Part shown: in pieces, positions 2,367 through 48,549 of the stretch
Numbering within the stretch: position 1 is the first letter of the stretch
Layout of the letters: each line of letters starts with the position of its first letter
Source of the DNA: a virus
Direction: 5' to 3' (one strand)
Length of the DNA stretch: 64,000 bases
IMG/VR virus record: IMGVR_UViG_3300025600_000001
Coordinates: 32,001-96,000 of that record
Made by a program: the position numbers and the translations under genes
The notes under the pieces: generated by a model
The model's input: the letters and a program-made list of their open reading frames with translations, nothing else
The model's database searches: none
Told to the model about the DNA's origin: nothing

Positions 2367-3736
2367 AACAAGAAATTCGTGTATTAGCTCAACTAACTTT
2401 TGAAGATATTGAGATGTATAATATAGAAACTACTAAAATTAAAGAAATGAAATTAGAAAAACTACCACAACGATGGTTTATTAGATGGGAAAGTAGAGAA
2501 CACTATGAAGTGATTCAAGGATATTTTAATTCTATAAGATCACATAATCAGTGGACTTATTATGTACCACAACATTGTGACTCAAAGATTAATCAGGATA
2601 ATAAATATAGAAGTTGGTCTGATCCTGATTTTGAAGATTCTATAGAATTATCATTTGATGATTTTGAAAGATTAGTTCTTAAAAAAGAATTTGTTTTTGT
2701 TTTACCTGAGAAATGGTATTGTATTTATAAAAATCAACAAGAGTTTGCTATTGCTAATGACTTTTTTAAAGGAAATTGGACGTATGTCAATGTTGATGGT
2801 GAACATGGATTTACAAACGTAGATAGCAATAATCATTGGTGGTGGAAAGGTCCTTTACTAAAATATACACAAATTAATTTTGAACAATTTACAAATTACG
2901 TATTAAAACCTAAAAAAATGGAAAAGAAAGTTATTGGGTATGAATTAAAAGAAGATTGTAAACAGTTTATTCCTGCTTTAGCAAAGATCTCATATGGTTA
3001 TGCTGGAGGATGTTTTGAAAATGGTTCACCATTTCATAACCATTATAAAGCAGCTAATGTTCTTGATCTTTGGTTTACTCCTTTATATGAAAAAGAGAGA
3101 GAGTATCAAGTAGGAGATTGGATTACAATGTTAAGTGAGTATTGTAACGAAGTTCCAAAAGATAAAACTTTTAAATTAGTTAATTTTCAAGGTGGTAGTT
3201 GTTGGGTAGTAGAACATGATGGTGAAGACAGTTATCTTGCTCCTTTTACATCTCAATTTAGACTAGCTACTAAGGAAGAAATCAAAAAAGCAGAAGATGA
3301 TTTATTGTTAGCAGAAGCAGCGAAACGTTATCCGATAGGAACAAAATTTTATCCTGCTCATGCAAATATAAGTAGTAGATATTGTATTGTTACTAGTGAA
3401 ATATTTATAATAGATGATAATAATGTTATCTATGCCACGATAGATGAAACTAAGTGTTGGGATTCATCTGGAGATAAAAAATATGGAAATACAAATTTAA
3501 ATAGAATAGTACACATAAATGGTAAATGGGCTGAGATTTGTGAAGATGTTCCAGATATTACTATTAATGGTTATAAAGCAATAATTACTCCTTTTGATGT
3601 AACATTTGGATGTCAGAAATATACCAAAGCATTTATAATGAAACTTTGGCAATGTTTGGAAACAAATGATTTTAAGATGGATTATAAAGATGATATTCAA
3701 AAATTAGCTGAATACTATGGTAGAACAGAGAATTAA
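2363..3736 (+). CDS. Mosaic hypothetical protein with an internal tandem domain duplication
   Basis: 457 aa; LPQRWF...ELSFDDFERLVLK is repeated as LPEKWY...QINFEQFTNYVLK. Confidence 0.7.
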   Translation: MKQEIRVLAQLTFEDIEMYNIETTKIKEMKLEKLPQRWFIRWESREHYEVIQGYFNSIRSHNQWTYYVPQHCDSKINQDNKYRSWSDPDFEDSIELSFDDFERLVLKKEFVFVLPEKWYCIYKNQQEFAIANDFFKGNWTYVNVDGEHGFTNVDSNNHWWWKGPLLKYTQINFEQFTNYVLKPKKMEKKVIGYELKEDCKQFIPALAKISYGYAGGCFENGSPFHNHYKAANVLDLWFTPLYEKEREYQVGDWITMLSEYCNEVPKDKTFKLVNFQGGSCWVVEHDGEDSYLAPFTSQFRLATKEEIKKAEDDLLLAEAAKRYPIGTKFYPAHANISSRYCIVTSEIFIIDDNNVIYATIDETKCWDSSGDKKYGNTNLNRIVHINGKWAEICEDVPDITINGYKAIITPFDVTFGCQKYTKAFIMKLWQCLETNDFKMDYKDDIQKLAEYYGRTEN

Positions 3737-5293: not shown

Positions 5294-5770
5294 ATGAAGT
5301 CTACTTTTGAAGATGAACTTGTTTGTATGATTCCAAGACTTAAAAACTTCGCCTTTAGATTGACTAGGAATATTGAAAATAGTGAGGACTTGTTAAGTGA
5401 AACCATCTTACAATCATTGAAAAATAAAGCAAAATATAAAGATGATACGAATTTTAAAGGATGGATAACTACTATAATGAAAAACTGTTTTGTAAATAAT
5501 TATAGACGATCAGTTAGACACGGAATACAATTAGAACTCGAAGATGTGAAAGGCAATAACATTTGCACCAGTAGAGAAATCGACAATAAAGTATATTTAA
5601 ATCAGATATTAGATTTTATAAATAACCAAGATAAAAAACTAAGTATTCCAATGATTTTATTTTCACAAGGATTCAAATATGAGGAAATATCCGAAATGCT
5701 TGGTATTCCTTTAGGTACTGTGAAATCAAGAATATTTATAATGAGAGAAAAATTAACTGAAATTTTATAA
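5294..5770 (+). CDS. ECF-type sigma-70 family sigma factor
   Basis: Region 2 (SEDLLSET...FKGWITTIMKN) and region 4 (GFKYEEISEMLGIPLGTVKSRI) motifs. Confidence 0.9.
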   Translation: MKSTFEDELVCMIPRLKNFAFRLTRNIENSEDLLSETILQSLKNKAKYKDDTNFKGWITTIMKNCFVNNYRRSVRHGIQLELEDVKGNNICTSREIDNKVYLNQILDFINNQDKKLSIPMILFSQGFKYEEISEMLGIPLGTVKSRIFIMREKLTEIL

Positions 5771-6197: not shown

Positions 6198-6689
6198 ATG
6201 AAAGAAATATTATTAAGCAAGTATGGTAAAAATAAGGGCAAATATGTTGCCTTAGTTGACGATGAAGATTACGAAAGAGTAAATAAATTAAATTGGTATA
6301 TTAAAATTCGCAAATCGAATAATTTATATTACGCTGTTCGTCAATTTGCACATAATAATAAGATGAAATGTCAATTTATGCACTCATATATACTTGGTTT
6401 GCCTATGATTGATCACAAAGATCATAATGGATTAAATAATCAGAGATTAAATCTAAGAGAATGCACCACAATTCAAAATTGTCAAAATCAAAGAATTAGT
6501 TTAAATGGCAGTTCAATTTATAAAGGGGTAAATTGGAATAATTACAGTAAAAAATGGGTTTCTCAAATTGGGGTCAATTATAGGCGTATTTTCATTGGTA
6601 GATTTAAAGACGAAATAGAAGCAGCAAAAGCCTATGATGCAAAAGCAAAAGAATTGTTTGGAGAATTTGCATTTGTTAATTTTAAATAA
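6198..6689 (+). CDS. HNH homing endonuclease with AP2 DNA-binding domain
   Basis: ALVDDED, IDHKDHNGLNNQRLNLR (HNH) and YKGVNW...IGRFKDEIEAAKAYD (AP2). Confidence 0.92.
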   Translation: MKEILLSKYGKNKGKYVALVDDEDYERVNKLNWYIKIRKSNNLYYAVRQFAHNNKMKCQFMHSYILGLPMIDHKDHNGLNNQRLNLRECTTIQNCQNQRISLNGSSIYKGVNWNNYSKKWVSQIGVNYRRIFIGRFKDEIEAAKAYDAKAKELFGEFAFVNFK

Positions 6690-6715: not shown

Positions 6716-6928
6716 ATGACAGCGAAAATAGAGGCCAAAAGGATATTTGAGCAATACTTTGACACACTTGCAGGATTTAGGATTAAAGACTGCAATGGAG
6801 TTCCTATTGAAAATGAATTAATCAAAGAGTGTGCTTTGATTGACGTTCATAATACACTAAAAGTAGTTCGCCAGCTAAATAATTATGCTTTTTATCAGGA
6901 AGTAAAAACAGAATTAGAAAAATATTGA
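6716..6928 (+). CDS. Small phage protein (paralog of 8333..8548)
   Basis: MTAKIEAKRIFEQY...KECALIDV...YQEVKTELEK. Confidence 0.7.
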   Translation: MTAKIEAKRIFEQYFDTLAGFRIKDCNGVPIENELIKECALIDVHNTLKVVRQLNNYAFYQEVKTELEKY

Positions 6929-8332: not shown

Positions 8333-8548
8333 ATGACACCGAAAGACGAAGCGAAAAGAATATTTGATCAGTACTATAAGCTATTATTCCTTTGTGAAAC
8401 AACAAAAGATATAGCGAAAAAATGCGCTTTGATAACTGTTAATCAGGTTATATTATCTTTTAAAATGGCTATTAATGATTATAAACCTAATAGTTGGCAT
8501 CCTGCTTGTTGGTGGGAGAAGGTAAAAAACGAACTTGAAAACCTATGA
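8333..8548 (+). CDS. Small phage protein (paralog of 6716..6928)
   Basis: MTPKDEAKRIFDQY...AKKCALITV...WEKVKNELENL. Confidence 0.7.
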   Translation: MTPKDEAKRIFDQYYKLLFLCETTKDIAKKCALITVNQVILSFKMAINDYKPNSWHPACWWEKVKNELENL

Positions 8549-10097: not shown

Positions 10098-10369
10098 ATG
10101 AATCCTCAAACTAAAGATCTTATTGATTATATATTTAGATATATATTAGCTCTTGTTGTAATTATAGGTCTTATAATTGTAATAGTGTTCATGTTTACAC
10201 ATAATATCAGTGGTATATATATACTGATACAATCACTCTATGTATAGGAGCACTTCTTGGTTCATATACCACTATAATCTCTTATGAATGGGGATCATCT
10301 AAAGGATCTTCAGATAAAACTACGATGCTTCACAATAGCACACCAATAATTCCAGAAAAAGAAAATTAA
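10098..10369 (+). pseudogene. Two-TM holin-like membrane protein frameshifted at a (TA)5 tract
   Basis: As written it stops at 10247. Removing one TA from 10214-10223 gives an 89 aa protein ending ...CIGALLGSYTTIISYEWGSSKGSSDK...EKEN. Confidence 0.7.
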
Positions 10370-10373
10370 TAAT

Positions 10374-11432
10374 ATGAGTTTTGAACAATTATCAAAAGAA
10401 GTTGAGAATGGTATGAAGGGACTCAACAATGGAATACCTATGGGATTTGATAGACTAAATAGATATATAGGAATTCGTAAAAGAATTCTTACTATGGTGT
10501 TTGGAGCTAGTGGATCTGGAAAATCTGCATATGTACATTCAGCATATATATTAAATCCTGCTGAGTGGTATATAAAAACTCGACCTAAAGATGTTAAGTT
10601 TAAAGTGATATTATTTTCTATGGAAAGAAGTAAAATATATACACTTGCTAAATGGATGAGTAGAAAGATATTTGTTGATCAAGGTATTTTAATACCTATT
10701 CCAAAGTTACTAGGATGGTGGGATGTAAAACTCACAAAAGATGAACATGATTTATTTTTAGCTTATAAAGATTATTTGAACGAACTTCTTGAAATAGTAG
10801 ATATTATAGAAGGAGCTCAAAATCCAACAGCAATTTATAAATATGTAAGGAGATATGCAGAAGATAATGGTAGATTTGAGCAAGTAGATGAATATACTAA
10901 AGTATACATACCAAATCATCCTAATGAAATAGTTATTCCTATAGAAGATCATTTAGGAATCACAAAACTTGAGAAAGGGCAATCTAATAAAAAAGAAGCT
11001 ATTGATAAAGTTTCAGAATATAATCAATGGTTTAGAGACATGTTAGGATATTCTCCTGTTACCGTTAGTCAACTTACAAGAGGTTTAAATAATCCAGCAT
11101 TTCGAAAAATGGATTCGTTTGAACCAACTATAGATGATATCAAGGAGAGTGGAAGACCTGGAGAAGATAGTGATGTAATTACTAGTCTTTTTGATCCAAT
11201 TAGGTATCAGACAAATGATCCTAGTTATAAAGTAGAAAACTTTATAGATGAGACTACAGGAGGAAAATTCTTTAGAAGTATCAAACTTCTTAAAAGTACA
11301 TATTCAGAAGACGATATTCGTATTGGTATGGGATTTCACGGAGCTACTGGAATTTTTAAAGAATTACCTAAAGGTAGAAACATGGATGGATTTGACTATA
11401 GTTCATTATTTAATGGTAGTTATTTTGTTTGA
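10374..11432 (+). CDS. DnaB-like replicative helicase
   Basis: TGF-like PMGFDRLN, Walker A GASGSGKS, FSME, EDHL, VSQLTR, DIKESGRPGEDSD. Confidence 0.88.
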   Translation: MSFEQLSKEVENGMKGLNNGIPMGFDRLNRYIGIRKRILTMVFGASGSGKSAYVHSAYILNPAEWYIKTRPKDVKFKVILFSMERSKIYTLAKWMSRKIFVDQGILIPIPKLLGWWDVKLTKDEHDLFLAYKDYLNELLEIVDIIEGAQNPTAIYKYVRRYAEDNGRFEQVDEYTKVYIPNHPNEIVIPIEDHLGITKLEKGQSNKKEAIDKVSEYNQWFRDMLGYSPVTVSQLTRGLNNPAFRKMDSFEPTIDDIKESGRPGEDSDVITSLFDPIRYQTNDPSYKVENFIDETTGGKFFRSIKLLKSTYSEDDIRIGMGFHGATGIFKELPKGRNMDGFDYSSLFNGSYFV

Positions 11433-11455
11433 CAAAACACTAAAAATTTATAAAA

Positions 11456-11671
11456 ATGAAAAAATTAAAAGGAAAAACATTAGATGAACTTCTAGAAGAT
11501 ATTCAAGTACTAGAAATAGATGAAGAAGTATGTAGAATAAATTATACTCCTGGACTAATTGGATGGTATGGCGTAATAAATGATCATTGTATTATTGCTT
11601 ATTTTAGAAAAGAAAAGAATGCTCTTAGATTTAGATTAGATTACATTAATCAAATATTAAATAGTATATGA
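11456..11671 (+). CDS. Hypothetical protein
   Basis: 71 aa ORF. Confidence 0.6.
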   Translation: MKKLKGKTLDELLEDIQVLEIDEEVCRINYTPGLIGWYGVINDHCIIAYFRKEKNALRFRLDYINQILNSI

Positions 11672-11841
11672 AAAGATATGTATTTGCTATAACGATTACA
11701 GGATTTGGAGAAACTCCTGATGAAGCATGGAAAGATGCTGTTGAAGCTACTAATCTTGAAGATGATCCTATACCTGAAGAGGATATATACGATGAGTATG
11801 AAATGGATGATGATGAAGAAGTAGAGGACTATAGGAATTAG
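11668..11841 (+). CDS. Small acidic protein (57 aa, not in ORF track)
   Basis: MKRYVFAITITGFGETPDEAWKDAVEA...DDDEEVEDYRN; ATGA overlap with the upstream ORF. Confidence 0.6.
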   Translation: MKRYVFAITITGFGETPDEAWKDAVEATNLEDDPIPEEDIYDEYEMDDDEEVEDYRN

Positions 11842-11920
11842 AGATCAACGACAATCTGAATTTGCAGATATGTGGATTCAAAGTGGAATGTTTGGTATAT
11901 TAAATCTATGTCCTAGTTGA
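11831..11920 (+). pseudogene. Stranded 5' relic of the SF2 helicase gene
   Basis: IGIRDQRQSEFADMWIQSGMFGILNLCPS-stop aligns with the helicase N-terminus IRTRRQREFANLWLESNMMNIMNLCPR; ATA stands where ATG is expected. Confidence 0.85.
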
Positions 11921-11947
11921 TAATTAAATTGTAATTTTGTATATTTG
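11916..11947 (+). promoter_or_regulatory. Bacteroidota-type promoter for the GIY-YIG cassette
   Basis: GTTG-N20-TATATTTG; the ATG at 11952 follows 4 nt later. Confidence 0.65.
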
Positions 11948-11951
11948 TACT

Positions 11952-12776
11952 ATGGAAATAAATAAAAATTTAATTAGAGTTTCTGGTATCTATAAGATAG
12001 AGAATATAGAAACAAAAGAATGTTATATAGGGAGTACCTTAAATATTTACAATAGAGCACATTCCTATAAATGCTTAGGAAAACAAAATAAAATTCATAG
12101 TACAAATTTACAAAAAGCAATAAATAACTATGGAATAGATATTTTTACTTTAGAAGTTTTAGAAAAAGTATATTTTGAAGAAGGTGTTTTAAAAAGTGAA
12201 AAATTGAAAATTCTTCACGATAAAGAACAAATATATTCCGATAATACTAATCTAAAATATAATAAAAGAAAAAATATTAATAAAAATACTGGAATAACTC
12301 TATCAAAAGAAACCAAAGAAAAAGTATCTACAACTCTTAAACGAATTTTTAAAGATGGTACAAGAATAATAGGAAGAATTTATTCTCATAATATAAAAGT
12401 ATCTATGTTTACAATTACTGGAACTTTTATTAAAGATTTTCCTGGATTAGCCCATTGTGCAGAATATTTAAATGTATCACCCTCATCAATCAATTATGCG
12501 TTAAAAAGCAAAAGACATGTTATAAAAAATCATATTATATTGAAACTTCAAGATAAAGATGAAATTAAAAATTTTATAAATATTCCATTAAATAAAAATA
12601 CTAATGGAAAAGCTATAAAAATTCTAGATACATTAGACGATAGTATACTGGAATTTATAAATTGTAAAACTTGTGCAAATATTATAAAATGTAAAGTTGA
12701 TACAATAGTTATTGGTTATAAAAAAAATAGATTAATTAAAAAAAGATATAAAGTAATAACCTATGGAAGATATTAG
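11952..12776 (+). CDS. GIY-YIG homing endonuclease with NUMOD1-like C-terminal repeats
   Basis: SGIYKIEN...CYIGS motif. Start moved from TTG 11937, which lies within the promoter, to ATG 11952. Confidence 0.9.
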   Translation: MEINKNLIRVSGIYKIENIETKECYIGSTLNIYNRAHSYKCLGKQNKIHSTNLQKAINNYGIDIFTLEVLEKVYFEEGVLKSEKLKILHDKEQIYSDNTNLKYNKRKNINKNTGITLSKETKEKVSTTLKRIFKDGTRIIGRIYSHNIKVSMFTITGTFIKDFPGLAHCAEYLNVSPSSINYALKSKRHVIKNHIILKLQDKDEIKNFINIPLNKNTNGKAIKILDTLDDSILEFINCKTCANIIKCKVDTIVIGYKKNRLIKKRYKVITYGRY

Positions 12777-13845
12777 AACGAGAAGACAACGTGAGTTTGC
12801 TAATTTATGGTTAGAGTCTAATATGATGAATATCATGAATTTGTGTCCCAGATTTGGAAAAATTAGAGTTGCTATAAATATCCTTGAACAGTTAAATCCT
12901 CATTGTACAGTATTAATTACTTATCCTGACAATAAAATAAGACATTCTTGGGAAGAGGATTTTGTAAAAAGAGGATATAATAATCCTAATATAACATTTA
13001 CTACACATCTTTCTCTCAAGAAATATGTAGATAAGATATTTGATATTATCATAATAGATGAAATACATCTAATTTCCACTGCACAAATGGAAATCTGCAA
13101 AGAACTTTTTAAAGAAAATCATGTAATGTTGGGTCTTACAGGTACATTAGCATCAGATACTAAAAATTGGTTACTATCTGCTTTGCATTTACCAGTAGTA
13201 GCAAATTACTCTATCAGTCAAGCTATATCTGAAGGAGTAATATCAGACTATGATATTACAGTTATTAAAGTTCCTTTGGATACAACAACTCTACAGGTTT
13301 ATAAGAAGCAACGTAAAACTGAGAAACAACAATTTGATATGCTCTCTTACGTTATTAATAAACAACAACAAGAAGGAAGAGATACAATGTTTATGCGTTT
13401 AGCTAGAATGAGAATTATTCAAAACAGTTTAAGTAAAATAAATAAAACTAAAGAAATACTAAAACAGTATGAAAATAATAGAATATTGGTCTTTTGTGGT
13501 ATTACAGCAGTTGCTGATAGTTTGGATATACCTTCTTTTCATAGTAAGTCAACCAATAAAATGACTTTTCAAAATTTTACAGAAGGCAATATTAAGCATT
13601 TGGCAGTTGTCAAAATTGGTGCTACAGGAATAACCTATAAACCTTTAAATCAGATAATTATAAATTATTTTGATAGTAATGCAGAAGATTTAGCACAAAA
13701 ATTGAACAGAGCTATGTCTTTTGAATACGATAATCCAGAGAAGAAGGCTCATATAACAATCATATGTTCAACAGAATCTGTCGAGCTTTTGTGGTTGAAG
13801 AAGGCTTTAGAATTTTTTAGTCCAGAAAAAATTAAATATCTATAA
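12763..13845 (+). CDS. Superfamily 2 (DExH) helicase
   Basis: Motif I CPRFGK, motif II DEIH, motif III GLTGT. Confidence 0.88.
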   Translation: MEDIRTRRQREFANLWLESNMMNIMNLCPRFGKIRVAINILEQLNPHCTVLITYPDNKIRHSWEEDFVKRGYNNPNITFTTHLSLKKYVDKIFDIIIIDEIHLISTAQMEICKELFKENHVMLGLTGTLASDTKNWLLSALHLPVVANYSISQAISEGVISDYDITVIKVPLDTTTLQVYKKQRKTEKQQFDMLSYVINKQQQEGRDTMFMRLARMRIIQNSLSKINKTKEILKQYENNRILVFCGITAVADSLDIPSFHSKSTNKMTFQNFTEGNIKHLAVVKIGATGITYKPLNQIIINYFDSNAEDLAQKLNRAMSFEYDNPEKKAHITIICSTESVELLWLKKALEFFSPEKIKYL

Positions 13846-13846
13846 T

Positions 13847-14011
13847 ATGAAACAAGAAATTGCTGATATTAAAAAAGTATTAGAAGAATTAAATATTTCA
13901 GTAGAAAAAATCAAATCTATTACTATTAAATGGGAAAAGATTTTTCCAAATAAAGCTTTTCCAAGAATAAAAATTAAACTATTTAATGATTCTAACGAAA
14001 AAAATGAGTAA
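13847..14011 (+). CDS. Small hypothetical protein (54 aa, not in ORF track)
   Basis: MKQEIADIKKVLEELNISVEK...NEKNE fills the gap between genes. Confidence 0.45.
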   Translation: MKQEIADIKKVLEELNISVEKIKSITIKWEKIFPNKAFPRIKIKLFNDSNEKNE

Positions 14012-14047
14012 CTTTAAAACAGAAATAATAAAAAAAATTAGAAAATT

Positions 14048-14878
14048 ATGGAGAAAGAAGATGTAATATTACCAGATGAAATTAGTAAAGTAGTTATATC
14101 AGCACCAAGAGATCTTGCTATAATTGGAATTCCTAAAAGTGGAAAAGGAACTATATTAGGAAATTTTACATTAACTCATAATGCTCTTGTACTAGATCTT
14201 GAAAAAGGAGGATATGAATATATTCCTGCTAGAAAAATGTCTACTTATACAGGACAGGAAACAAGTCAATGGGAAAGTTTTCAAAACTTTATTAAATATC
14301 GTAATCTTTTATTGGAAAATAAAGGAAAATATGAATATCTAATTATAGATGGATTATCCGATCTTGATAGTTTATCCGACCTCGGTGGAACTCTGTCTTA
14401 TATGAATGGAATTATAGGTAAGAATTTTAATAGACCTAAATTAGCAAATGGATTATATGGTGAAAAATATAAACCGACTGATCCAGAGTTTAAATCAGTA
14501 TTAACATTACCTGATGGGGCTGGTTATATGAGTACTCGAAATTGGTTTCTTCAACAAATTGAAATGTTTAGACAAATAGCACCATATAGAATTTATGCTG
14601 CTCATATTGCTGATAAATATATTAAAGATAATGGAAAAGAAGAAGTGATAGGTAGTGAAATTTCTCTTACTGGAAAATTAAAAACAATTTTTGCAAGTAG
14701 AGTGACTGCTTTAGCAAAATTGGTAGTAGATGAGAATGAACGTTATCTTAATTTTGATGTTCAAAATGATAGTATTGTTGCAGGAAGTAGATCTCCTAAA
14801 TTGAAAGGAAAGATACTAATTTCAAGACAAGAATCAGATGGAACTATAATAACCTTTTGGGATAATATTTATGGATAA
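14048..14878 (+). CDS. AAA/P-loop ATPase (AAA_24, Sak4-like)
   Basis: GIPKSGKGT, LVLDLEKG, LIIDG, GAGY, AAH; lies next to an SSB-like gene. Confidence 0.8.
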   Translation: MEKEDVILPDEISKVVISAPRDLAIIGIPKSGKGTILGNFTLTHNALVLDLEKGGYEYIPARKMSTYTGQETSQWESFQNFIKYRNLLLENKGKYEYLIIDGLSDLDSLSDLGGTLSYMNGIIGKNFNRPKLANGLYGEKYKPTDPEFKSVLTLPDGAGYMSTRNWFLQQIEMFRQIAPYRIYAAHIADKYIKDNGKEEVIGSEISLTGKLKTIFASRVTALAKLVVDENERYLNFDVQNDSIVAGSRSPKLKGKILISRQESDGTIITFWDNIYG

Positions 14879-15530
14879 CACTTTTTGTATATACGTATTT
14901 TCTGATCAATGGGGTGTACCAAAATATGTTGGTAAAGCTAAAGATTTTGCAAAAAGAATGGATGAGCATCTAAATAGAGATAGATTTAGATATAGTTCTA
15001 CTTGGTTCTATAGATGGTTAAATAAACAAATTGCAAACGATATAGAATTCTTTATGGATATATTAGAGGAAGTTACTCAGGAAACTTGGATAGAAAGGGA
15101 AATCTATTGGATAAAACATATTAAAGATAATGGATACAGATTAACAAATATGACTAATGGTGGGGATGGCAACAATAATCAAATCCATACTAAAGAGAGT
15201 AGATTAAAAAGATCCAAAAGAATGATGGGACACGAGGTCTCTGAAGAAACAAGAAAACGTATATCAAAAGGTCTCACTGGTAAAGTGATATCTAAAGAAA
15301 CTAGAAAGAAGTTATCTAATCTTAATAAAGGAAAAATATGTTTAGAATCTACTAAACTAAAATTTTCAAAAGTAATAGATCAATATGATTTAGCTAAGAA
15401 TTTTATTCAAAGTTTTACTTCTCTAACTAATGCTGCAATCTTTTTAAATTGTAGAAAATCATCTTTGAGTAATGCTATGAAAAGAAAAATTAATGGTAGA
15501 TTTAAAAACTATTTATGGAAATATAAATAA
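14871..15530 (+). CDS. GIY-YIG homing endonuclease with NUMOD3/NUMOD1 motifs
   Basis: CIYVF...KYVG, EREIYWI, LTNMTNGGDG, SEETRKRIS repeats, QYDL. Confidence 0.88.
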   Translation: MDNTFCIYVFSDQWGVPKYVGKAKDFAKRMDEHLNRDRFRYSSTWFYRWLNKQIANDIEFFMDILEEVTQETWIEREIYWIKHIKDNGYRLTNMTNGGDGNNNQIHTKESRLKRSKRMMGHEVSEETRKRISKGLTGKVISKETRKKLSNLNKGKICLESTKLKFSKVIDQYDLAKNFIQSFTSLTNAAIFLNCRKSSLSNAMKRKINGRFKNYLWKYK

Positions 15531-15568
15531 AACAAGTAATTAATTAAAACAAGTAAAAATTAAAAGCT

Positions 15569-16450
15569 ATGGCAATTGGTGGAGAAAAACGTGAGCATAC
15601 TAGCTTACCAGATTATGTAAAACGCATAGGTCTTTTCGAGGCTAAAGTAATTGCAGTTAATCCTGCAGCAGATGAGTATAAAACTTTACTAGGATATGAT
15701 CTGAAAGAAGATAGTAAAGAATGTGATTATCTAAGTGTTAACGATGCTGGGAATACTATTCTTAGAATCAATATTTGGTTGGAAGATGTGAAAACATCTA
15801 ACAATGATCAACCAAGTAGATATAAGGTGACCTTTTTCCTGGAGAATAAGGAAAGAGAAAATAAGGATCTAACCAAGAAACAGTATATTAATGAACTTGG
15901 TAGTTGTACATGGGCAGACGATCCTAATAATCTTAAAGAATGGTTTACTGCTCGTGAATATCGTGTAGCATATAATGGAGAAGAAGATCTTTACAATTTT
16001 ATGCGTACATGGTTGTGTGAATTGGATTATAAACAAGATGTCACTGTTTTACAAATTCCGTGGAAATCTTTAATGAAAGGAAATGTAAAAGAAATTAAAG
16101 AACAAATTAATGGTGAATGGTGTGGTAATATTGGCGCATTGGCTACAATTAACACTAAAGAGAAAGATGGAGACATTAAAGAGTACCAATCCGTCTATAA
16201 TAAGGCATTTCTGCCTATATATGCCCTTAAAAACTTTAGATTGATAGATTATAGCAATCCGAAGATAATCGAGGCTATAAAGGCTAAAAAGCCTAAAGAT
16301 CAGAAAGCTCATGAAAAATTTGTTTTAAATGTAACAGGGGAGTTTGGGTGTCGCGATAGTTACCTCCTTAAAGATATTAAAGATTATAACAGCGAAGAAT
16401 TCCTAGTGGCAAGTAATAAGGTGATATCAGAGGAAGGAGACGACTATTAA
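15569..16450 (+). CDS. Putative single-stranded DNA-binding protein
   Basis: crAss-like VIAVNP and KKQYINxxG motifs, acidic C-terminus EEGDDY, position after the AAA ATPase. Confidence 0.6.
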   Translation: MAIGGEKREHTSLPDYVKRIGLFEAKVIAVNPAADEYKTLLGYDLKEDSKECDYLSVNDAGNTILRINIWLEDVKTSNNDQPSRYKVTFFLENKERENKDLTKKQYINELGSCTWADDPNNLKEWFTAREYRVAYNGEEDLYNFMRTWLCELDYKQDVTVLQIPWKSLMKGNVKEIKEQINGEWCGNIGALATINTKEKDGDIKEYQSVYNKAFLPIYALKNFRLIDYSNPKIIEAIKAKKPKDQKAHEKFVLNVTGEFGCRDSYLLKDIKDYNSEEFLVASNKVISEEGDDY

Positions 16451-20028: not shown

Positions 20029-20118
20029 ATGTCAGACATTAAGACGTACAAAGTATCACAAGCAGCAATGCTAGCAGTGCTGCCACCAGAATCCACAAGA
20101 ACGTATAATTCTTCATAA
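20029..20118 (+). pseudogene. Stranded 5' relic of the DUF932-like gene
   Basis: MSDIKTYKVSQAAMLAVLPPESTRTYNSS-stop versus MKESYSVSKAMLISTPIPESTRTYKS. Confidence 0.88.
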
Positions 20119-20120
20119 AT

Positions 20121-20155: not shown

Positions 20156-21127
20156 ATGAAAAATATAACTATAAATTTTATATTAGCAAGAACTTCTGCT
20201 AATTATGAAGATATACATTGTACTGGTATATATAGAATATATCACATCATTAAACCATCTATTTTTTACATTGGAAGTGCTTCTTCTAATAAAAGATGGA
20301 GAGAGGGTTTTAAACAACGATGGGTAGAACATATCAAAGAACTTCGTAAAAACATTCATCATTCTCCATTCTTACAAAGAGTTATTAATTTATATGGAAT
20401 AGAAGGATTAAGATTTGAAATAATTGAAAAATGTGAATCTTCTATATGCATACGTAAAGAACAATTTTGGTTAGATTTTTATAAACCATTTAAAAATAAA
20501 GGTTATAATACTTGTAAAATTGCAGGAAGTTCTATGGGTTATAAATTTTCTGAAGATCAAATAAAAAATAGAAAAAAAATATTTCAATATGATTTAAAAG
20601 GTAAATTCATTGAAGAATATAAAAGTTTAACTGATGCAGCAAAACAAACAAATACTAGAATTAATGAAATCAAAGATTGTGCTAAAAAAAGAATACAATA
20701 TACGAAAGGACATATATGGAGATATGAAAAAGAAAGTGTAGATTCTATATTTCATATTAAGATTTTTAAGATAGCGTGCTACTTTGATGGACAATTTCAA
20801 TTTGTAGATTCTTTACAAAAAGTAGAAGAAAAAACAAAAGTCCATAAAAAGTTTATTTATAACTGTATTAATAAAAATCTAAATAAAACATCTAATAATT
20901 GGTTATTTAGAAAATACGATATTGAAAATTGTCCAGAAAAAATTGATTGTGTTACAGTATTAAGATATAAATATGAACTTATAGAAAATGAAAAATCTAT
21001 CATTTTTAATACGTTAATATTATTAACAAGTTATTTAAAAGTTCATAGAAAATATTTTGAAGAAAAAATGAAAGTAACAAATGAAATAGTTTTTAATAAT
21101 AAAATAATTAAAAAATTAATAAAATGA
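20156..21127 (+). CDS. GIY-YIG homing endonuclease with NUMOD1
   Basis: TGIYRIY...FYIGS, EQFWLD, YNTCKIAGS, QYDLKG. Confidence 0.9.
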   Translation: MKNITINFILARTSANYEDIHCTGIYRIYHIIKPSIFYIGSASSNKRWREGFKQRWVEHIKELRKNIHHSPFLQRVINLYGIEGLRFEIIEKCESSICIRKEQFWLDFYKPFKNKGYNTCKIAGSSMGYKFSEDQIKNRKKIFQYDLKGKFIEEYKSLTDAAKQTNTRINEIKDCAKKRIQYTKGHIWRYEKESVDSIFHIKIFKIACYFDGQFQFVDSLQKVEEKTKVHKKFIYNCINKNLNKTSNNWLFRKYDIENCPEKIDCVTVLRYKYELIENEKSIIFNTLILLTSYLKVHRKYFEEKMKVTNEIVFNNKIIKKLIK

Positions 21128-22369: not shown

Positions 22370-23350
22370 ATGACATATTTTAAACTTACTCCAGAAATTC
22401 ATAAAAATATAGCAGATGAATATATTTCATCTATAACTACTCAACAAGATTTAGCAAAAAAATATAATGTTAGTACAGTTATGATTTCAAATATATTAAA
22501 AAAATTTAAAATTCCTACAGATCATCGAAGAGGATTTTATAATGTAGATATTAATTATTTTAAAATTATAGATACACCTAATAAATCATATTTTTTAGGT
22601 TTATTTCATGCCGATGGAAGTAACTCTGAGGAGCATAACTGTGTTAGAATTTCTTTACAGGAAAAGGATAAAGAAATATTAGAAAAATTAAAAAAAGATA
22701 TAAAATATTCAGGTCCTTTATATTATTTAAAAAAACAAGGAAATAGAAGTAATCAATTTTCATTAAATATTGTAGCAAAAGAATTATCACAAGATTTGGT
22801 AATTCTAGGTTATCCTAAGAATAAAACTTACAAAGTAGTATTTCCAGAATACTTAGAACAGTCATTAGTAAGACATTTTATTAGAGGATTGTTCGATGGA
22901 GATGGATGTATTCATGCTAAATATAAACATAGTTTAAGTATCGTTGGTACATGTAATACTTTGTTAGGAGTAAAAGATTATTTACAAGAAATATTAAATA
23001 TAAATTCTGTAATAGTAGAAAGTAAATCTAAAAATATATTTAGATTAAGTATATGTAAAAAGATAGATATATTCAATACATTATGTCATTTATATGAAAA
23101 TAGTGAATTGTATTTACAAAGAAAATATGACATCTTTCATCAAGTGTACATGATTCAGAAAGAACATTTATATTGGCAAATATACTGTAAAAATTTAAAA
23201 ACTAATGAAATTAATATTTTTAAAAATATGCAAGAAACTAAAGAATTTTTTGGATTAAAATCCTATGCAGCAATATCTTATTGTATCCATAAAAGTAAAA
23301 CTAAAATTTTTAGAAAAACGTATTATATAAATTTATTGAAAAATGAATAA
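22370..23350 (+). CDS. LAGLIDADG homing endonuclease with N-terminal HTH
   Basis: YFLGLFHADG and FIRGLFDGDG motifs. Confidence 0.9.
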   Translation: MTYFKLTPEIHKNIADEYISSITTQQDLAKKYNVSTVMISNILKKFKIPTDHRRGFYNVDINYFKIIDTPNKSYFLGLFHADGSNSEEHNCVRISLQEKDKEILEKLKKDIKYSGPLYYLKKQGNRSNQFSLNIVAKELSQDLVILGYPKNKTYKVVFPEYLEQSLVRHFIRGLFDGDGCIHAKYKHSLSIVGTCNTLLGVKDYLQEILNINSVIVESKSKNIFRLSICKKIDIFNTLCHLYENSELYLQRKYDIFHQVYMIQKEHLYWQIYCKNLKTNEINIFKNMQETKEFFGLKSYAAISYCIHKSKTKIFRKTYYINLLKNE

Positions 23351-28613: not shown

Positions 28614-28778
28614 ATGAAACAGAAATTATTAAAATCGACAATTAGTGTACTAGAAGCCTTAAAAGAAGATGCGAATATGGCATTGAATGGAACTTGGGAT
28701 TGTACTGAACCAGGTTTCAGAGCCCAAATTAGAGCAATTAATGGAGTTTTATCAGAACTAAAAGCAAAATTAAAATGA
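28614..28778 (+). CDS. Small hypothetical protein (54 aa, not in ORF track)
   Basis: MKQKLLKSTISVLEALKEDANMALNGTWDC...KAKLK; its stop overlaps the relic ATG. Confidence 0.6.
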   Translation: MKQKLLKSTISVLEALKEDANMALNGTWDCTEPGFRAQIRAINGVLSELKAKLK

Positions 28779-28843
28779 TAGAAGGAATTAAAAAAATAAA
28801 TTCTGAAAGTGATTATCGTAAGATACAACTTGATTCAAGTTAA
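28775..28843 (+). pseudogene. Stranded 5' relic of the PD-(D/E)xK nuclease gene
   Basis: MIEGIKKINSESDYRKIQLDSS-stop versus MIKGINKNIDEKSYRTICLDSA (12/22 identical, ungapped). Confidence 0.88.
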
Positions 28844-28911
28844 AAAAGAGAAAAGTTATAGGATTATATATTTAATTTTTGTATATTTATATATAACTAA
28901 GTTATAATAAG

Positions 28912-29685
28912 ATGATTGGAATCTATAAAATAACAAGTCCTTCGAATAAAGTTTATATAGGACAAAGTTGGAATTTGATTAAAAGAGAGAAAGATTATAA
29001 GTCTTTAGCTAATATAATTAGACAAAGAAAAATATATAATTCTATGAAAAAATATGGAGTAGATAAACATATTTTTGAAATACTTCATATTCTTTCAGAT
29101 ACTACTATACAAAAAGAATTAGATTATTGGGAAATATATTATTGGAAGTATTTTATATCTCAAGGATTTGAAATGCTTAATATTAAAGAACCAGGAAAAG
29201 GAGGAAGATTAGATATTGAAACTAAAGAAAAGATATCTAAATCAAATAAGGGAAGAATTAGAAGTGAAGAAGTAATGAGTAAAATTAAGAATTTAGATAG
29301 ATATAATCTTCCTATTCTAATGTTAAATTTAAATGGAAAAATCATAAGAGAGTTTAGAAATATAAATTCATGTTCACGAGAATTACATGTTAGTTCTTCT
29401 AATATAAAATCAGTAATGAATGGTAAAACTAAAACATGTTTATCTCATATTTTTATAAAAAAAGTAGATTATGATGAATCTAAATTTACACAAATAATAG
29501 TTCCTGGTGGATGTACTGAGGTAAATCAATATGATTTAGATAATAATTTTATTAAAAGTTTTTTAAGTTTTAAAAATATTAGATTAGAATTAGAATTAAA
29601 AATAGGATGTGATCCTAATATTATAAGAGCTTGCAAATCTGAAAATAGAATAGCTTATGGTTTTAAATGGAAATATAAAAATTAA
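28912..29685 (+). CDS. GIY-YIG homing endonuclease with NUMOD motifs
   Basis: MIGIYKITSPSNKVYIGQS, ETKEKISKS, QYDL...AYGFKWKY; promoter-like TATATTTA at 28882-28889. Confidence 0.92.
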   Translation: MIGIYKITSPSNKVYIGQSWNLIKREKDYKSLANIIRQRKIYNSMKKYGVDKHIFEILHILSDTTIQKELDYWEIYYWKYFISQGFEMLNIKEPGKGGRLDIETKEKISKSNKGRIRSEEVMSKIKNLDRYNLPILMLNLNGKIIREFRNINSCSRELHVSSSNIKSVMNGKTKTCLSHIFIKKVDYDESKFTQIIVPGGCTEVNQYDLDNNFIKSFLSFKNIRLELELKIGCDPNIIRACKSENRIAYGFKWKYKN

Positions 29686-39763: not shown

Positions 39764-40176
39764 TAGGATTGTGTTAACAAATACAAAGTTTTTGCTGCTT
39801 TGCCACTAAGATCTTGGGCTAAATTCTCAATATTAGAATATCCTTTAGAACTAGCATAGTTTTCTAATTGACTTGCAAAATTCTTTAATTCTATAAGAAC
39901 TTTTTCAGGAGCACCTGGAATATAATCAATAATTGGTTCAAACTTATAGACTTTTACCTTTCTTCCTTCATACCCCATTAGTTCTTCTAAAAATGTATCT
40001 TTTGCATTTACTACATCATCCCAAACATTTAATGCAGAGTGTTCAGCATGAGAAGGAGTCTGTAAATGCAGTAGGTGTATCTGCTCAAAAAAATATGAAA
40101 ATCTTTGAGCAATTGTTTCTAAAGATAACTCTCCCCCTGAGGAGGAGAGCATATTTTGAGGAAATAATGATTTCAT
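39763..40176 (-). CDS. Ferritin/Dps-like four-helix protein (DUF5856-like)
   Basis: HLLHLQT...AEHSAL...DTFLEELMG...KTLYLLT. Confidence 0.75.
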   Translation of the reverse strand: MKSLFPQNMLSSSGGELSLETIAQRFSYFFEQIHLLHLQTPSHAEHSALNVWDDVVNAKDTFLEELMGYEGRKVKVYKFEPIIDYIPGAPEKVLIELKNFASQLENYASSKGYSNIENLAQDLSGKAAKTLYLLTQS

Positions 40177-41060
40177 TATCCTAAATTTGTAGTTGTTGTC
40201 GTTGTTGTACTACTTGTACTGGTACTAGTAGAACTAGTAGACGAACTAGTTGTTGATGTAGAGGTAGTAGTAGGACAAGGATTAACTGTACAAGTTGCAC
40301 CAGTGATATTATTACCATCAAGAGTTACAGCAGCAGTTAATGCAAATGCTCTACCTACTAATTTAGCAGAAGTAGTCATTGTTACAGATGCCTGTGCAAT
40401 AATATTACCAACCATATTTGAGAAAGTACCAAGTGTAGCAGAGGATCCTACTATCCAATATACATTTCCTGCTTTAGTACCATTAGTTAATGATACATTA
40501 GATGATGAAGCTGTAACTAATGTTGAAGGAACTATAAATACAAATAATGCATTTGGATTACCTCCGCCATTTAATGTAAGAGTTCCTGTAATAGCAGCAG
40601 AACTTCCAAAGGTATATACACCTGGTATAACGGTAGTACCACCGATATCTGTACTTAGTGTAGAAGTAGGAGTTAATGCTCCTAAACAGTCAAAAGCAGT
40701 TTGTGCACTTACTTTTCCAGCAGCAGCAACTCCATCAGTTATAAACTTTGTTCCATTTACAATTCCTGGTGGAAAACCTACCACTGATGTTCCTGGGGAT
40801 AAACCAAGATCACCATTTACTACTGATGATCCTGTATTTGTAACAGTAGAAGCACCTAACACTACAAAGTGTGCAGCATCTCCTAATGTGGTACAAGTAA
40901 TAGGACCAGGTAAAAAATTACAACATTGATATGCAGGGATTTCCTGCCATTTTCCTACTCTGGGCATCTTTCTCCTAAGGATTAAAGATCCCGCTACAAC
41001 TCTCCCAGATCCATCGTATCTAACATAGGCATTGAGCGGACGTTGACTAATAGTTCCCAT
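40176..41060 (-). CDS. Ice-binding-like protein (DUF3494) with shared N-terminal module and Thr/Ser tail
   Basis: FVVLGASTVTNTGSSVVNGDLGLSPG, PGVY, GTLTL, NVYWIVGSSATLG, GRAFA...AVTLD. Confidence 0.9.
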   Translation of the reverse strand: MGTISQRPLNAYVRYDGSGRVVAGSLILRRKMPRVGKWQEIPAYQCCNFLPGPITCTTLGDAAHFVVLGASTVTNTGSSVVNGDLGLSPGTSVVGFPPGIVNGTKFITDGVAAAGKVSAQTAFDCLGALTPTSTLSTDIGGTTVIPGVYTFGSSAAITGTLTLNGGGNPNALFVFIVPSTLVTASSSNVSLTNGTKAGNVYWIVGSSATLGTFSNMVGNIIAQASVTMTTSAKLVGRAFALTAAVTLDGNNITGATCTVNPCPTTTSTSTTSSSTSSTSTSTSSTTTTTTTNLG

Positions 41061-46917: not shown

Positions 46918-48549
46918 TTATTGTACTATAACCCAGTCAAAAATTACGGAACCTGTAAGTCCAGTGAGAAAAACGACATCGAAGGAAGTTGTTGTTTTAT
47001 TATTCACATAATGTACTGCGGAAGACAAAACGTTGTTTCCTTCCGTTACGACTTTATATGTAGTATTTGCCATTGTTTGCCCGATTGTTACTGTAAATGT
47101 TGTTGTGGCTGTTCCTGTTCCAGAAAATGAACCTGCTATGGCACTCTGTTGGTCTAATTGATACCTAGTGGGAGTAGAAGATGTCCAATAAATATGAGTT
47201 CCATCACTTTCTACATTTCCAGTTACAGGTGTTGTAGTTACTACTCCAGCGTCTATTTTAAGTGAAGCGGTATTTGCCGAAGCTGTTGATGCCTTCAAAT
47301 GTAGTACTGCAGTTGGCGATATAGTCCCGATGCCGACGTTGCCGTTATTTGTTATTCTCATTTTCTCTGTGGGAGGGGTATTTACTAACCCAGTACCAAA
47401 AGAAATATAAGAAATACCAGTAGCACCACCGTTTGAATTATTTATATAAGTAGTCCCATAAGTAGAGTAATCTACTGTATTTGCATTGGCATTCCAGTTG
47501 TTGCTGATTAACAAGTCGGAACCAGTTGTTCCATTTATCCCAATACGGTTATAGTATGGCCAACCATTCGCACTAAATTTAATTCCATTATTATCAGATG
47601 TTGCAGAACTTAAATGTAGTTGTGCATACGGCATCGTCGTACCAATCCCGACGTTAGTTCCATCATCATAAATCATTGCACCAGTGTCACCAATAGTTGT
47701 AGCACTTGTAAATTTAGCAACGTAATTTGTTGTTCCACTTACTGCTACAGATGTACCACTAGTTCCAGTAGTACCTGAAGTTCCATTTATACCAGAACTA
47801 CCTGATGTTCCACTAGTTGATGAGGTTCCTGATGTGCCATCTATAGCACTACTTCCACTAGTTCCATTTGTTCCTGAAGACCCAGATATACCGCTAGTTC
47901 CGTCAATAGCAGAGGTACCACTTGTACCATTTAATCCTGATGTACCAGACGTTCCATTAGTTCCATTGATACTTATTCCTGATGTACCTGAAGTTGAACT
48001 ACTACCTGAACTACCAGATATTGAAATACCTGACGAACCTGAACTTCCTGATGTTCCACTCACACCACTACTACCAGCAATTGTTATTCCTGAACTACCA
48101 CTTAATCCAGATGAACCAGATGTACCTCCAGTTGATGAAGTTCCTGAACTACCATTAGTAGAACTACCACTAGTTCCACTTGTTGATGATGTACCAGAAG
48201 TTCCAGGAATAGTAAGACCACTAGTACCACTAGTAGAACTTGTTCCACTACTACCGTTTGAACCATTAATAGCACTTGTTCCTGATGTTCCATTTCCACT
48301 AGTACCACTTGTAGATGAGGTTCCTGATGTTGATGAAGTTCCACTAGTGGCAGAAGTACCACTAGTTCCTCCTGTTCCTGAAGACCCATTTAATACTCCT
48401 GAATGCAAAGCATTATCTATTTTTACAAATACTGTTTCAATAGTATCATTTGTATTGACGTGAAGATATATTAAATTAGGACCTTCATAAAATACACAGG
48501 TAGAACTTAATATAACAGGACATGGAGAGGGATTACAACGTATCTTCAT
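46918..48549 (-). CDS. Putative tail fibre/surface protein with Gly-Thr-Ser repeats
   Basis: N-terminal CxxxxCP...CVFYEG module, about 210 aa of (G-T/S-S) repeats, then NVGIGT beta repeats. Confidence 0.75.
   Translation of the reverse strand: MKIRCNPSPCPVILSSTCVFYEGPNLIYLHVNTNDTIETVFVKIDNALHSGVLNGSSGTGGTSGTSATSGTSSTSGTSSTSGTSGNGTSGTSAINGSNGSSGTSSTSGTSGLTIPGTSGTSSTSGTSGSSTNGSSGTSSTGGTSGSSGLSGSSGITIAGSSGVSGTSGSSGSSGISISGSSGSSSTSGTSGISINGTNGTSGTSGLNGTSGTSAIDGTSGISGSSGTNGTSGSSAIDGTSGTSSTSGTSGSSGINGTSGTTGTSGTSVAVSGTTNYVAKFTSATTIGDTGAMIYDDGTNVGIGTTMPYAQLHLSSATSDNNGIKFSANGWPYYNRIGINGTTGSDLLISNNWNANANTVDYSTYGTTYINNSNGGATGISYISFGTGLVNTPPTEKMRITNNGNVGIGTISPTAVLHLKASTASANTASLKIDAGVVTTTPVTGNVESDGTHIYWTSSTPTRYQLDQQSAIAGSFSGTGTATTTFTVTIGQTMANTTYKVVTEGNNVLSSAVHYVNNKTTTSFDVVFLTGLTGSVIFDWVIVQ
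47750..48390 (-). repeat. Degenerate 9-bp coding repeat (GTS/GSS)n
   Basis: Translation SGTSGTSATSGTSSTSGTS...; codons are diversified. Confidence 0.85.

Follow-up and report, generated by a model that had tools for sequence, protein, structure and literature searches.

Organization of the helicase locus

We describe here the unusual organization of an SF2 helicase locus in a phage genome, in which a homing endonuclease gene stands between the complete helicase gene and a short relic of a helicase 5' end. The locus lies within positions 32,001 to 96,000 of IMG/VR virus record IMGVR_UViG_3300025600_000001, a stretch of 64,000 nucleotides (nt) that we call the window and whose own numbering is used throughout; the complete virus record measures 117,568 bp and has terminal repeats. 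On the plus strand the relic is followed by a spacer, the endonuclease gene and the whole helicase gene, and these are listed below with the neighboring open reading frames (ORFs; lengths of products in amino acids, aa). Two other contigs recur in the comparisons and are named by locus number: L003, a close relative without the endonuclease gene, and L136, a 112-kb contig that carries a related endonuclease gene.

10374-11432, plus strand: DnaB-like helicase gene
11456-11671, plus strand: 71-aa ORF, identical to its L003 counterpart at 67 of 71 positions
11668-11841, plus strand: 57-aa acidic ORF, the final 11 nt of which overlap the first codons of the relic
11831-11920, plus strand: relic of the helicase 5' end, 29 codons and TGA (BLASTP, Smith-Waterman alignment and codon comparison)
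11917-11951, plus strand: spacer of 35 nt, the left end of the putative cassette, promoter-like and homologous to the L136 spacer
11952-12776, plus strand: gene for a free-standing I-TevI-like GIY-YIG homing endonuclease, 274 aa (Pfam, PHROGs, PDB 1mk0)
12763-13845, plus strand: SF2 helicase gene, whole and mosaic, 360 aa (Helicase_C, ResIII, PHROG 16)
12763-13120 (right end approximate), plus strand: imported 5' segment of the helicase gene, from a foreign lineage (sliding nucleotide identity)
12844-12861, plus strand: motif I (P-loop) codons TGT CCC AGA TTT GGA AAA, the presumed target region (conservation)
13348-13845, plus strand: 3' part of the helicase gene, DNA 100% identical to the endonuclease-free L003

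Contigs from sequencing runs X1 (depth 551, 11300-13424) and X2 (depth 287, 11608-13245) span the relic, the endonuclease gene and the helicase start with no differences, and the layout is not a mis-join or an assembly artefact. X1 and X2 are possibly the source sample, so that the spanning contigs prove contiguity and do not count as independent support; a third run, X3, gave only 35-40-nt pieces on the relic-to-endonuclease region, each with 3-5 differences. A DNA search of a phage collection with positions 10300-14900 returned no match, and a search with the helicase protein returned 30 records, 29 of them from Flavobacterium phages at 27-30% identity and one labelled 'Bacteriophage sp.' at 22%; all of these are too distant to inform. 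The 57-aa ORF has no Pfam or PHROG match and no homologue by tblastn in 86 helicase loci (L003-L088), and it is not present in L003, in which the 71-aa ORF abuts the helicase gene.

The relic derives from the native helicase start

The relic begins ATA GGA ATT AGA, ends TGT CCT AGT TGA, and translates as IGIRDQRQSEFADMWIQSGMFGILNLCPS up to the stop codon. A GAGG sequence stands 3 nt 5' of the ATA, an in-frame TAG stop lies two codons upstream (11822-11824), and there is no ATG, GTG or TTG before an internal methionine, Met14. The initial annotation of this stretch, made from the sequence without database searches, had taken the ATA after GAGG for a lost start codon, and the alignments bear this out, with the ATA falling opposite both the ATG of L003 and that of the L136 relic; a G-to-A change is the simplest reading of the loss. 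The match to residues 4-29 of the window's own helicase, put by that annotation at 15 of 26 positions, was reproduced (BLASTP E 1e-11), and the Smith-Waterman score of 92 compares with a maximum of 48 among 200 shuffles.

The affinity of the relic lies with endonuclease-free relatives. L003 (the same contig as L009, recovered twice) has the 71-aa ORF followed directly by the helicase gene, with the N-terminus MNIRDQRQSEFADMWIQQGMYGILNLCPRFGK, and by this gene order it is the empty site. Relic and L003 N-terminus are identical at 24 of 26 positions (BLASTP E 4e-18), and the 17 nucleotide differences among 78 amount to 10 synonymous and two non-synonymous codon differences; the relic DNA as a whole is 78.8% identical to L003, and the upstream backbone (10366-11672) 75%. 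When compared with 81 helicases from viral and metagenome contigs, the relic matches at a median of 17 of 26 positions (best 24) and the working N-terminus at a median of 13 (best 16). As anticipated in the initial annotation, the relic is closer than the working N-terminus to endonuclease-free orthologues, being nearer to 53 of the 55 distinct orthologue N-termini, with two ties and no case of the opposite. Judged by these orthologues, the relic is the phage's own native helicase start, and the working N-terminus is the outlier.

The ten synonymous against two non-synonymous differences show that the relic diverged from L003 while it was still coding, nearly all of the divergence having arisen under purifying selection, and that the stub is young. 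Its youth is enough to account for the frame being still open, so that the DNA-level role which had been read from the preserved frame is not needed, and the inference is not supported.

The working helicase is a mosaic

The helicase gene has matches to PF00271 (Helicase_C, 28.6 bits), PF04851 (ResIII, 24.9 bits) and the DNA helicase family PHROG 16, and in the orthologue alignment its product keeps the invariant residues, including PRFGK and DEIH of motifs I and II. The initial annotation called it the intact gene, which is correct in that the frame is whole, but it is not the phage's original, about 120 codons at its start having been imported with the endonuclease gene. In a sliding comparison of nucleotide identity, the segment from 12763 to about 13120 is nearest to L010 (66-84%) and reaches only 48-70% with L003, the segment from about 13120 to 13350 is nearest to L085 and L003 (74-92%), and everything from 13348 on is 100% identical to L003. 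Over residues 30-100 the protein shares 86% identity with L010, and none of the others exceeds 72%. By these comparisons the first ~120 helicase codons are imported from a foreign sublineage and the last ~165 are L003-identical. The helicase gene starts within the endonuclease ORF, 14 nt from its 3' end, and this overlap implies that the endonuclease gene and the imported segment travel as one piece. A search with residues 1-125 in a collection of 5.8 billion proteins gave best identities of 76% (L010/P0003), 73% (P0004) and 73% (P0005), consistent with a segment drawn from another helicase sublineage whose exact donor is unsampled. The layout accounts for the patchwork of this helicase.

We also note several features of the surrounding sequence. 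A second blastn segment against L003 extends from 13828 to 15600 (the end of the query), corresponding to L003 3424-5196 at 99.9% identity, and it includes a second GIY-YIG gene (14871-15530) present in both genomes; co-conversion around it is a possible reason for the contrast between the 3' part of the helicase, which has 100% identity with L003, and the backbone upstream, which has only 75%. L003 has an extra 98-aa ORF (3129-3425) between the helicase and a 54-aa ORF, with none in the window (13843-13847), and a low-depth 359-nt contig (9.5 in X1, 12.9 in X2) touches both sides of that insertion point, which suggests a minor variant bearing the 98-aa-ORF insert in the X1 and X2 samples. L010 has an HNH ORF about 850 nt upstream of the helicase, and all that comes after it of the DnaB-like gene is a C-terminal piece of 110 aa (L010 175-1141). 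Within L010 positions 1368-1500 the helicase sequence resembles L003 up to and just past the motif I junction point and the window from 20-35 nt beyond that point; this switch may be a footprint of break repair in which no cassette was gained, or a coincidence.

The endonuclease gene

Assignment of the 11952-12776 product as a homing endonuclease follows from a match to PF01541 at 24.0 bits (cut-off 22.6), one to PHROG 314 'homing endonuclease' (E 3.7e-12) with further matches to PHROG 19446, 5123 and 7168, and an alignment of residues 11-80 to the I-TevI catalytic domain 1mk0 (E 0.0027; 1ln0 also matched) in which the GIY, YIG and Arg positions coincide. Its homologues P0125-P0127 carry PF07453 in precomputed annotation. 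The family is small, with eight proteins at E <= 1e-5 including itself (identities of 51%, 49% and 43-44%), and the gene, which is out of frame with the relic, is present in the window and L136 and absent from L003. No intron RNA accompanies it, there being no Rfam match, including to RF00028, in 11000-14200 at E <= 1.

An upstream ORF is present at 78 helicase loci, and 21 of these ORFs, selected by setting aside those of DnaB size, duplicates and eight that measure 56-85 aa, were compared with Pfam. No endonuclease family was matched, and five upstream ORFs some 200 aa long gave no match of any kind. There is likewise no second helicase N-terminus at the other 81 loci that have an N-terminal match.

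The junction lies in the motif I codons

Homology between relic and helicase stops after AG at 11916, within the Arg codon of motif I (CP/RFGK). The residues of the working gene at this point are C28, P29, R30, F31, G32 and K33, and the junction falls in codon 30, with a positional uncertainty of about 3 nt. The initial annotation had proposed insertion exactly at motif I, contrasting TGT CCT AGT TGA at the relic end with TGT CCC AGA TTT GGA AAA in the intact gene, and both the reading and the placement are confirmed, the more so as L136 has the same junction. In the window TGTCCTAG passes at the junction into TTGATAATT (TTGATAA), in L136 TGTCCAAGG passes into TTGTTAATA (TTGTTAA), and the intact gene reads TGTCCCAGATTTGG. 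In a conservation scan of the first 70 codons (210 nt) of 76 distinct helicase 5' ends, the 18-nt stretch with the highest conservation starts at codon 28 (TGT CCA AGG TTT GGT AAG), and the junction is inside this stretch. The enzyme probably cuts in or near the P-loop codons.

Two further candidate marks were considered and rejected. The residues KIR after motif I do not serve as a mark of resistance in endonuclease-linked alleles, as IR occurs there in 34 of 82 helicases, including the native-like L042. CNNNG is the I-TevI cleavage motif, and its occurrence at the relic end (CCTAG) is of a kind too common to count.

The spacer resembles a promoter

The spacer contains the promoter-like arrangement TTGATA-N17-TATATT at 11917-11945, and although a scan for sigma-70-like sites over 11400-13000 found fewer than expected (7 versus 13.9), the spacer site is among the two best. 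TAnnTTTG boxes occur in it at 11932 and at 11940, with 4 nt between the second box and the endonuclease ATG; TAnnTTTG is the -7 consensus of promoters in Bacteroidota, the host group that we infer here. The plus strand of positions 1-37500 has 34 such boxes, six of them within 45 nt 5' of an ORF start, and four of these six precede three relic-linked endonuclease genes.

A more specific box, TTTGTATATT, occurs six times in the window against 0.99 expected, a count reached in none of 100 shuffles. Three copies (11936, 22310 and 28878) are in relic-to-endonuclease spacers, and a fourth (34312) occupies a genuinely intergenic stretch ahead of ORF 34345, an ORF that comes after a hairpin-like terminator and has no relic upstream; the remaining two are plus-strand copies inside a minus-strand ORF. 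The L136 spacer has the box as well. We regard TTTGTATATT as probably a promoter element, and the spacer as the putative promoter of the cassette.

A second genome with the same element

A scan of viral contigs with a single endonuclease sequence gave no match, and L136 was reached with an alignment of the endonuclease relatives as the query, which yielded 80 GIY-YIG loci. Among these L136 is the sole full-length relative of the window's enzyme (42% identical). To find relics, the 400 nt upstream of each endonuclease were compared with residues 1-60 encoded by the gene that follows, with 100 shuffles as the control; 62 of the 80 loci were testable, the other 18 lacking a following ATG-started ORF of at least 60 aa or meeting a contig end. 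L136 alone scored (82 against at most 40, z 12.5).

The order in L136 is a DnaB-like gene, a 227-aa ORF, the relic, the spacer, the endonuclease gene and a 371-aa helicase gene that overlaps the endonuclease stop. Its relic is a 33-codon ORF that keeps its ATG and reads MSIRDLRQKEFADVWLKEKHGILNLCPRLLITF up to the stop. The spacers and endonuclease starts of the two genomes align, with TAnnTTTG 4 nt before the ATG in both; the helicases are 59% identical and the relics share 17 of 25 residues. The nearest affinity of each relic is again with an endonuclease-free helicase, that of L136 matching the N-terminus of L042 at 25 of 28 positions. The same element at the same site, each copy with its own relic, is thus known from two genomes only. 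Relics this fresh (24/26 and 25/28) beside endonucleases only 42% identical suggest repeated insertion, with the relic renewed each time, and repeated homing into native alleles fits the pair better than one accident. We consider L136 the main new finding beyond the initial observation.

Other relics and invasions

The search for an upstream relic of the next gene was extended to all eight endonuclease-like ORFs of the window, and four of them scored above the maximum of 200 shuffles, one of these at the borderline.

11952-12776, endonuclease (GIY-YIG), next gene SF2 helicase: score 92, shuffle maximum 48
20156-21127, endonuclease-like, next gene a DUF932 gene: score 63, shuffle maximum 48
22370-23350, endonuclease (LAGLIDADG), next gene a UDG gene: score 55, shuffle maximum 47
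28912-29685, endonuclease-like, next gene at 29691: score 55, shuffle maximum 54, borderline

The three additional relics all keep an ATG.

20030-20119, upstream of 20156-21127: relic reading MSDIKTYKVSQAAMLAVLPPESTRTYNSS up to a stop codon
22217-22345, upstream of 22370-23350: relic forming a 42-codon ORF that starts MNKSKTILSEEAFEPLFGSWWPKINKF
28776-28844, upstream of 28912-29685: relic reading MIEGIKKINSESDYRKIQLDSS up to a stop codon, the shuffle test being borderline

The mirror pattern, a relic at the 3' side, was found for none of the eight ORFs. No relic was present in 46 DUF932 loci of other phages, a search for the UDG gene in viral contigs gave no match, and the gene at 29691 has one distant locus there.

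In L120 (1362-2150), another phage contig, a LAGLIDADG ORF lies directly upstream of a DUF932 gene, and no relic is detected at E <= 0.01, so that an endonuclease is found at the start of the DUF932 gene with no stub. L085 (110-1196) has a 1087-nt insert between LIVLD and EIHLL (motif II) of the same helicase as in the window, holding a 270-aa GIY-YIG-like/NUMOD1 ORF. This insert has partial matches to RF00028 (35.9 bits, E 3e-7, and 31.3 bits, E 6.8e-6; gathering score 50) that appear only in a shorter Rfam search, the whole-locus search having missed them, and its 5' part folds no better than shuffles (z -1.28); the 5' exon is protein-identical to L003 and the 3' exon is from another lineage. 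In L005 (2057-3991; the contig is the same as L082) the DnaB-like gene beside the helicase is 644 aa long instead of about 354. The additional block, whose last residues are VTHN, follows GNTGSGK directly and resembles an intein inserted at the P-loop.

The genome has a number of other features. It encodes an ice-binding-like protein (40176-41060, minus strand; PF11999, E 5e-51), a collagen-repeat protein (46918-48549, minus strand) and a sigma-70-type factor (5294-5770, plus strand), and the sequencing runs that contain the phage are labelled peat metagenome, with no RNA run listed among them. Two small ORFs, 6716-6928 and 8333-8548, are alike at 12 of their first 18 residues (MTAKIEAKRIFEQYFDTL and MTPKDEAKRIFDQYYKLL), and the first of them is directly 3' of an AP2-domain ORF (6198-6689).

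Models for the origin of the relic

We think it likely that an end-replacing homing cassette entered the helicase gene at its motif I codons, and that the relic is the native 5' end of the gene left stranded by this event. Such a cassette would consist of the promoter-like spacer, the GIY-YIG gene, and foreign helicase codons 1-29 with their own start. In a mixed infection the endonuclease would cut endonuclease-free helicase alleles in or near the conserved P-loop codons; the left end of the break (codons 1-29) would pair with the donor relic and the right end with the donor helicase, and repair would copy the spacer, the endonuclease gene and donor codons 1-29 into the gap, with co-conversion extending a few hundred bases rightward. 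The helicase would then be translated from the imported start, and because that start overlaps the endonuclease stop, neither an intron nor an intein would be needed. The recipient's old start would stay behind as a stub, which in the window has later lost its ATG, and the stub would be a scar at first and then the left homology arm in the next round.

Several observations weigh against this proposal. The 18 nt across the junction (GAATTTGTGTCCCAGATT) are identical in the working allele and the endonuclease-free L003, which leaves unexplained how the working allele escapes its own enzyme. No close donor is found, and the nearest relatives do not share the window's first 29 residues; L010, to which the imported segment is closest, is without an endonuclease gene at the helicase start, where a 55-aa ORF precedes the helicase instead. 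Among the 82 loci with a helicase N-terminus, the window included, a true relic is present only in the window, L136 having been reached solely through the endonuclease search and not through the helicase-locus set. The L136 relic is nearer than its working counterpart to the orthologues in only 41 of 57 comparisons, with two ties and 14 pointing the other way. X1 and X2 contain neither an endonuclease-free variant nor a joint that skips the cassette, contigs being prone to drop rare variants, and the NUMOD1 match of the endonuclease (21.8 bits) is just below its cut-off of 22.8.

Another account would be that an upstream endonuclease gene was captured once by end-joining in a half-illegitimate repair, leaving a one-off scar with no mobility and no role for the relic. 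The cassette has no known close copy, as the endonuclease is at most 51% identical to its homologues, the reads show no polymorphism, and with L136 alone having a relic among the 62 testable GIY-YIG loci the layout is uncommon. We nevertheless consider this account improbable, because L136 has the same junction and a homologous spacer, together with a relic that matches a different allele and an endonuclease only 42% identical; a single old scar should have decayed over the time in which the two endonucleases diverged, and the four layouts in one window would require four accidents. That the relic is kept for a function of its own, either as an operator half-site by the endonuclease promoter or as a short peptide, seems more doubtful still. 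I-TevI autorepression provides the operator model, the relic abuts the promoter-like TTGATA at 11917, and the three other window relics and the L136 relic keep an ATG and open frames of 22-42 codons; but the helicase relic of the window is without a start codon, its synonymous excess is explained by selection before insertion, and the comparison of conservation is limited to two relics with 17 of 25 residues identical.

The remaining two explanations we regard as very unlikely. A local tandem duplication of the helicase start, with decay of one copy and no relation to the endonuclease, would leave the same 26 residues encoded twice on a strand, as they are here at an interval of 935 nt, but the copies differ at 32 of 78 nt, it is the non-functional copy that resembles the orthologues and the functional one that comes from another sublineage, and L003 is an empty site. 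We give as little weight to a split or spliced gene, of which the relic would be the first exon and in which a group I intron would house the endonuclease gene, notwithstanding the apparent group I intron with a GIY-YIG-like ORF at motif II of the same helicase in L085. The N-terminus of the downstream helicase is complete in itself, the relic has no start codon and terminates in TGA TAA, there are only 35 nt before the endonuclease ORF and none after it, and Rfam finds no intron in 11000-14200 at E <= 1.

Relationship to known homing systems

Free-standing endonucleases of the seg and mob type in T4-like phages (SegF and SegG, for example) are known for 'intronless homing', in which they cut a neighboring gene in endonuclease-free phages and flanking markers are co-converted; their insertions are intergenic and are not known to involve a duplicated gene end. 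The arrangement described here is similar in having a free-standing GIY-YIG gene by an essential phage gene, and differs in that the insertion is 29 codons inside that gene. With I-TevI of the T4 td gene the enzyme shares an N-terminal GIY-YIG domain and apparently also the targeting of a conserved coding site, and its C-terminal part may likewise be of the NUMOD type, with NUMOD1 here just below the cut-off; I-TevI rides in a self-splicing intron, whereas no intron RNA was found here.

Replacement of a gene end has been described in two fungal settings. The mORF gene hybrids of fungal mitochondria include atp6 of Allomyces macrogynus and atp6, atp9, cox2 and nad3 of Glomus (PMC3630166). In these hybrids, as at our locus, a LAGLIDADG or GIY-YIG ORF resides in a host gene with no intron, the expressed gene end is a foreign copy brought by the ORF and the native end is left beside it, and the native end is nearer to relatives than the inserted end, with differences mostly synonymous (PMC3630166). 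The mORF hybrids differ in having the 3' end exchanged and a downstream relic (PMC3630166), instead of the 5' end with the relic upstream, and here the imported start codon is coupled to the endonuclease stop and the host is a phage, not an organelle. The second setting is that of the WHO elements, which home into FBA1 in Torulaspora and Lachancea yeasts (Coughlan et al. 2020, PMC7282813). According to that paper, an essential gene acquires at each homing event a resistant version of one of its ends, the old end being displaced as a fragment, the fragment is a homology arm for the next event, and the host gene becomes chimeric with discordant histories. The scheme proposed here is similar in outline. 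The paper describes intein-like LAGLIDADG-zinc-finger proteins, meiosis and the 3' end, compared with a phage, a GIY-YIG enzyme and the 5' end in our case; several fragments cluster there and a single relic is present here, and cleavage has been demonstrated there, whereas the present case is known from sequence.

No description of such an end-replacing layout in phages was found in full-text searches of literature that excluded most subscription journals, and no such case is contained in the consulted portion of Barth et al. 2023 (PMC10448857). Because it is the 5' end that is replaced, a cassette of this kind must bring a start codon and apparently a promoter.

Implications

The stub marks the probable target to within a few bases and also identifies the recipient lineage, so that cut site and specificity are directly testable. 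Annotators should bear in mind that a small orphan ORF ahead of an endonuclease gene in a phage may represent a relic of a gene start.

It is possible, and we offer this with some reserve, that phages harbor a distinct class of homing elements, which enter essential genes at their catalytic motifs and make use of no intron or intein. Such an element would be made up of a relic arm, its own promoter, an endonuclease gene and a replacement gene start, and with target-gene sequence on both flanks it could move by homing to every genome in which the gene occurs, irrespective of the upstream sequence. On this tentative reading each event would renew the relic and rewrite the 5' end, driving fast chimeric evolution of replication genes, and the relic, lying next to the promoter, might double as an operator half-site to which the enzyme binds. 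Apart from this reading, the layout itself shows, in the provision of a spare gene start, a third way beside introns and inteins for a homing endonuclease gene to reside inside an essential gene without destroying it; the strategy of replacing a gene end is documented for 3' ends in fungal mitochondria and yeast nuclei.

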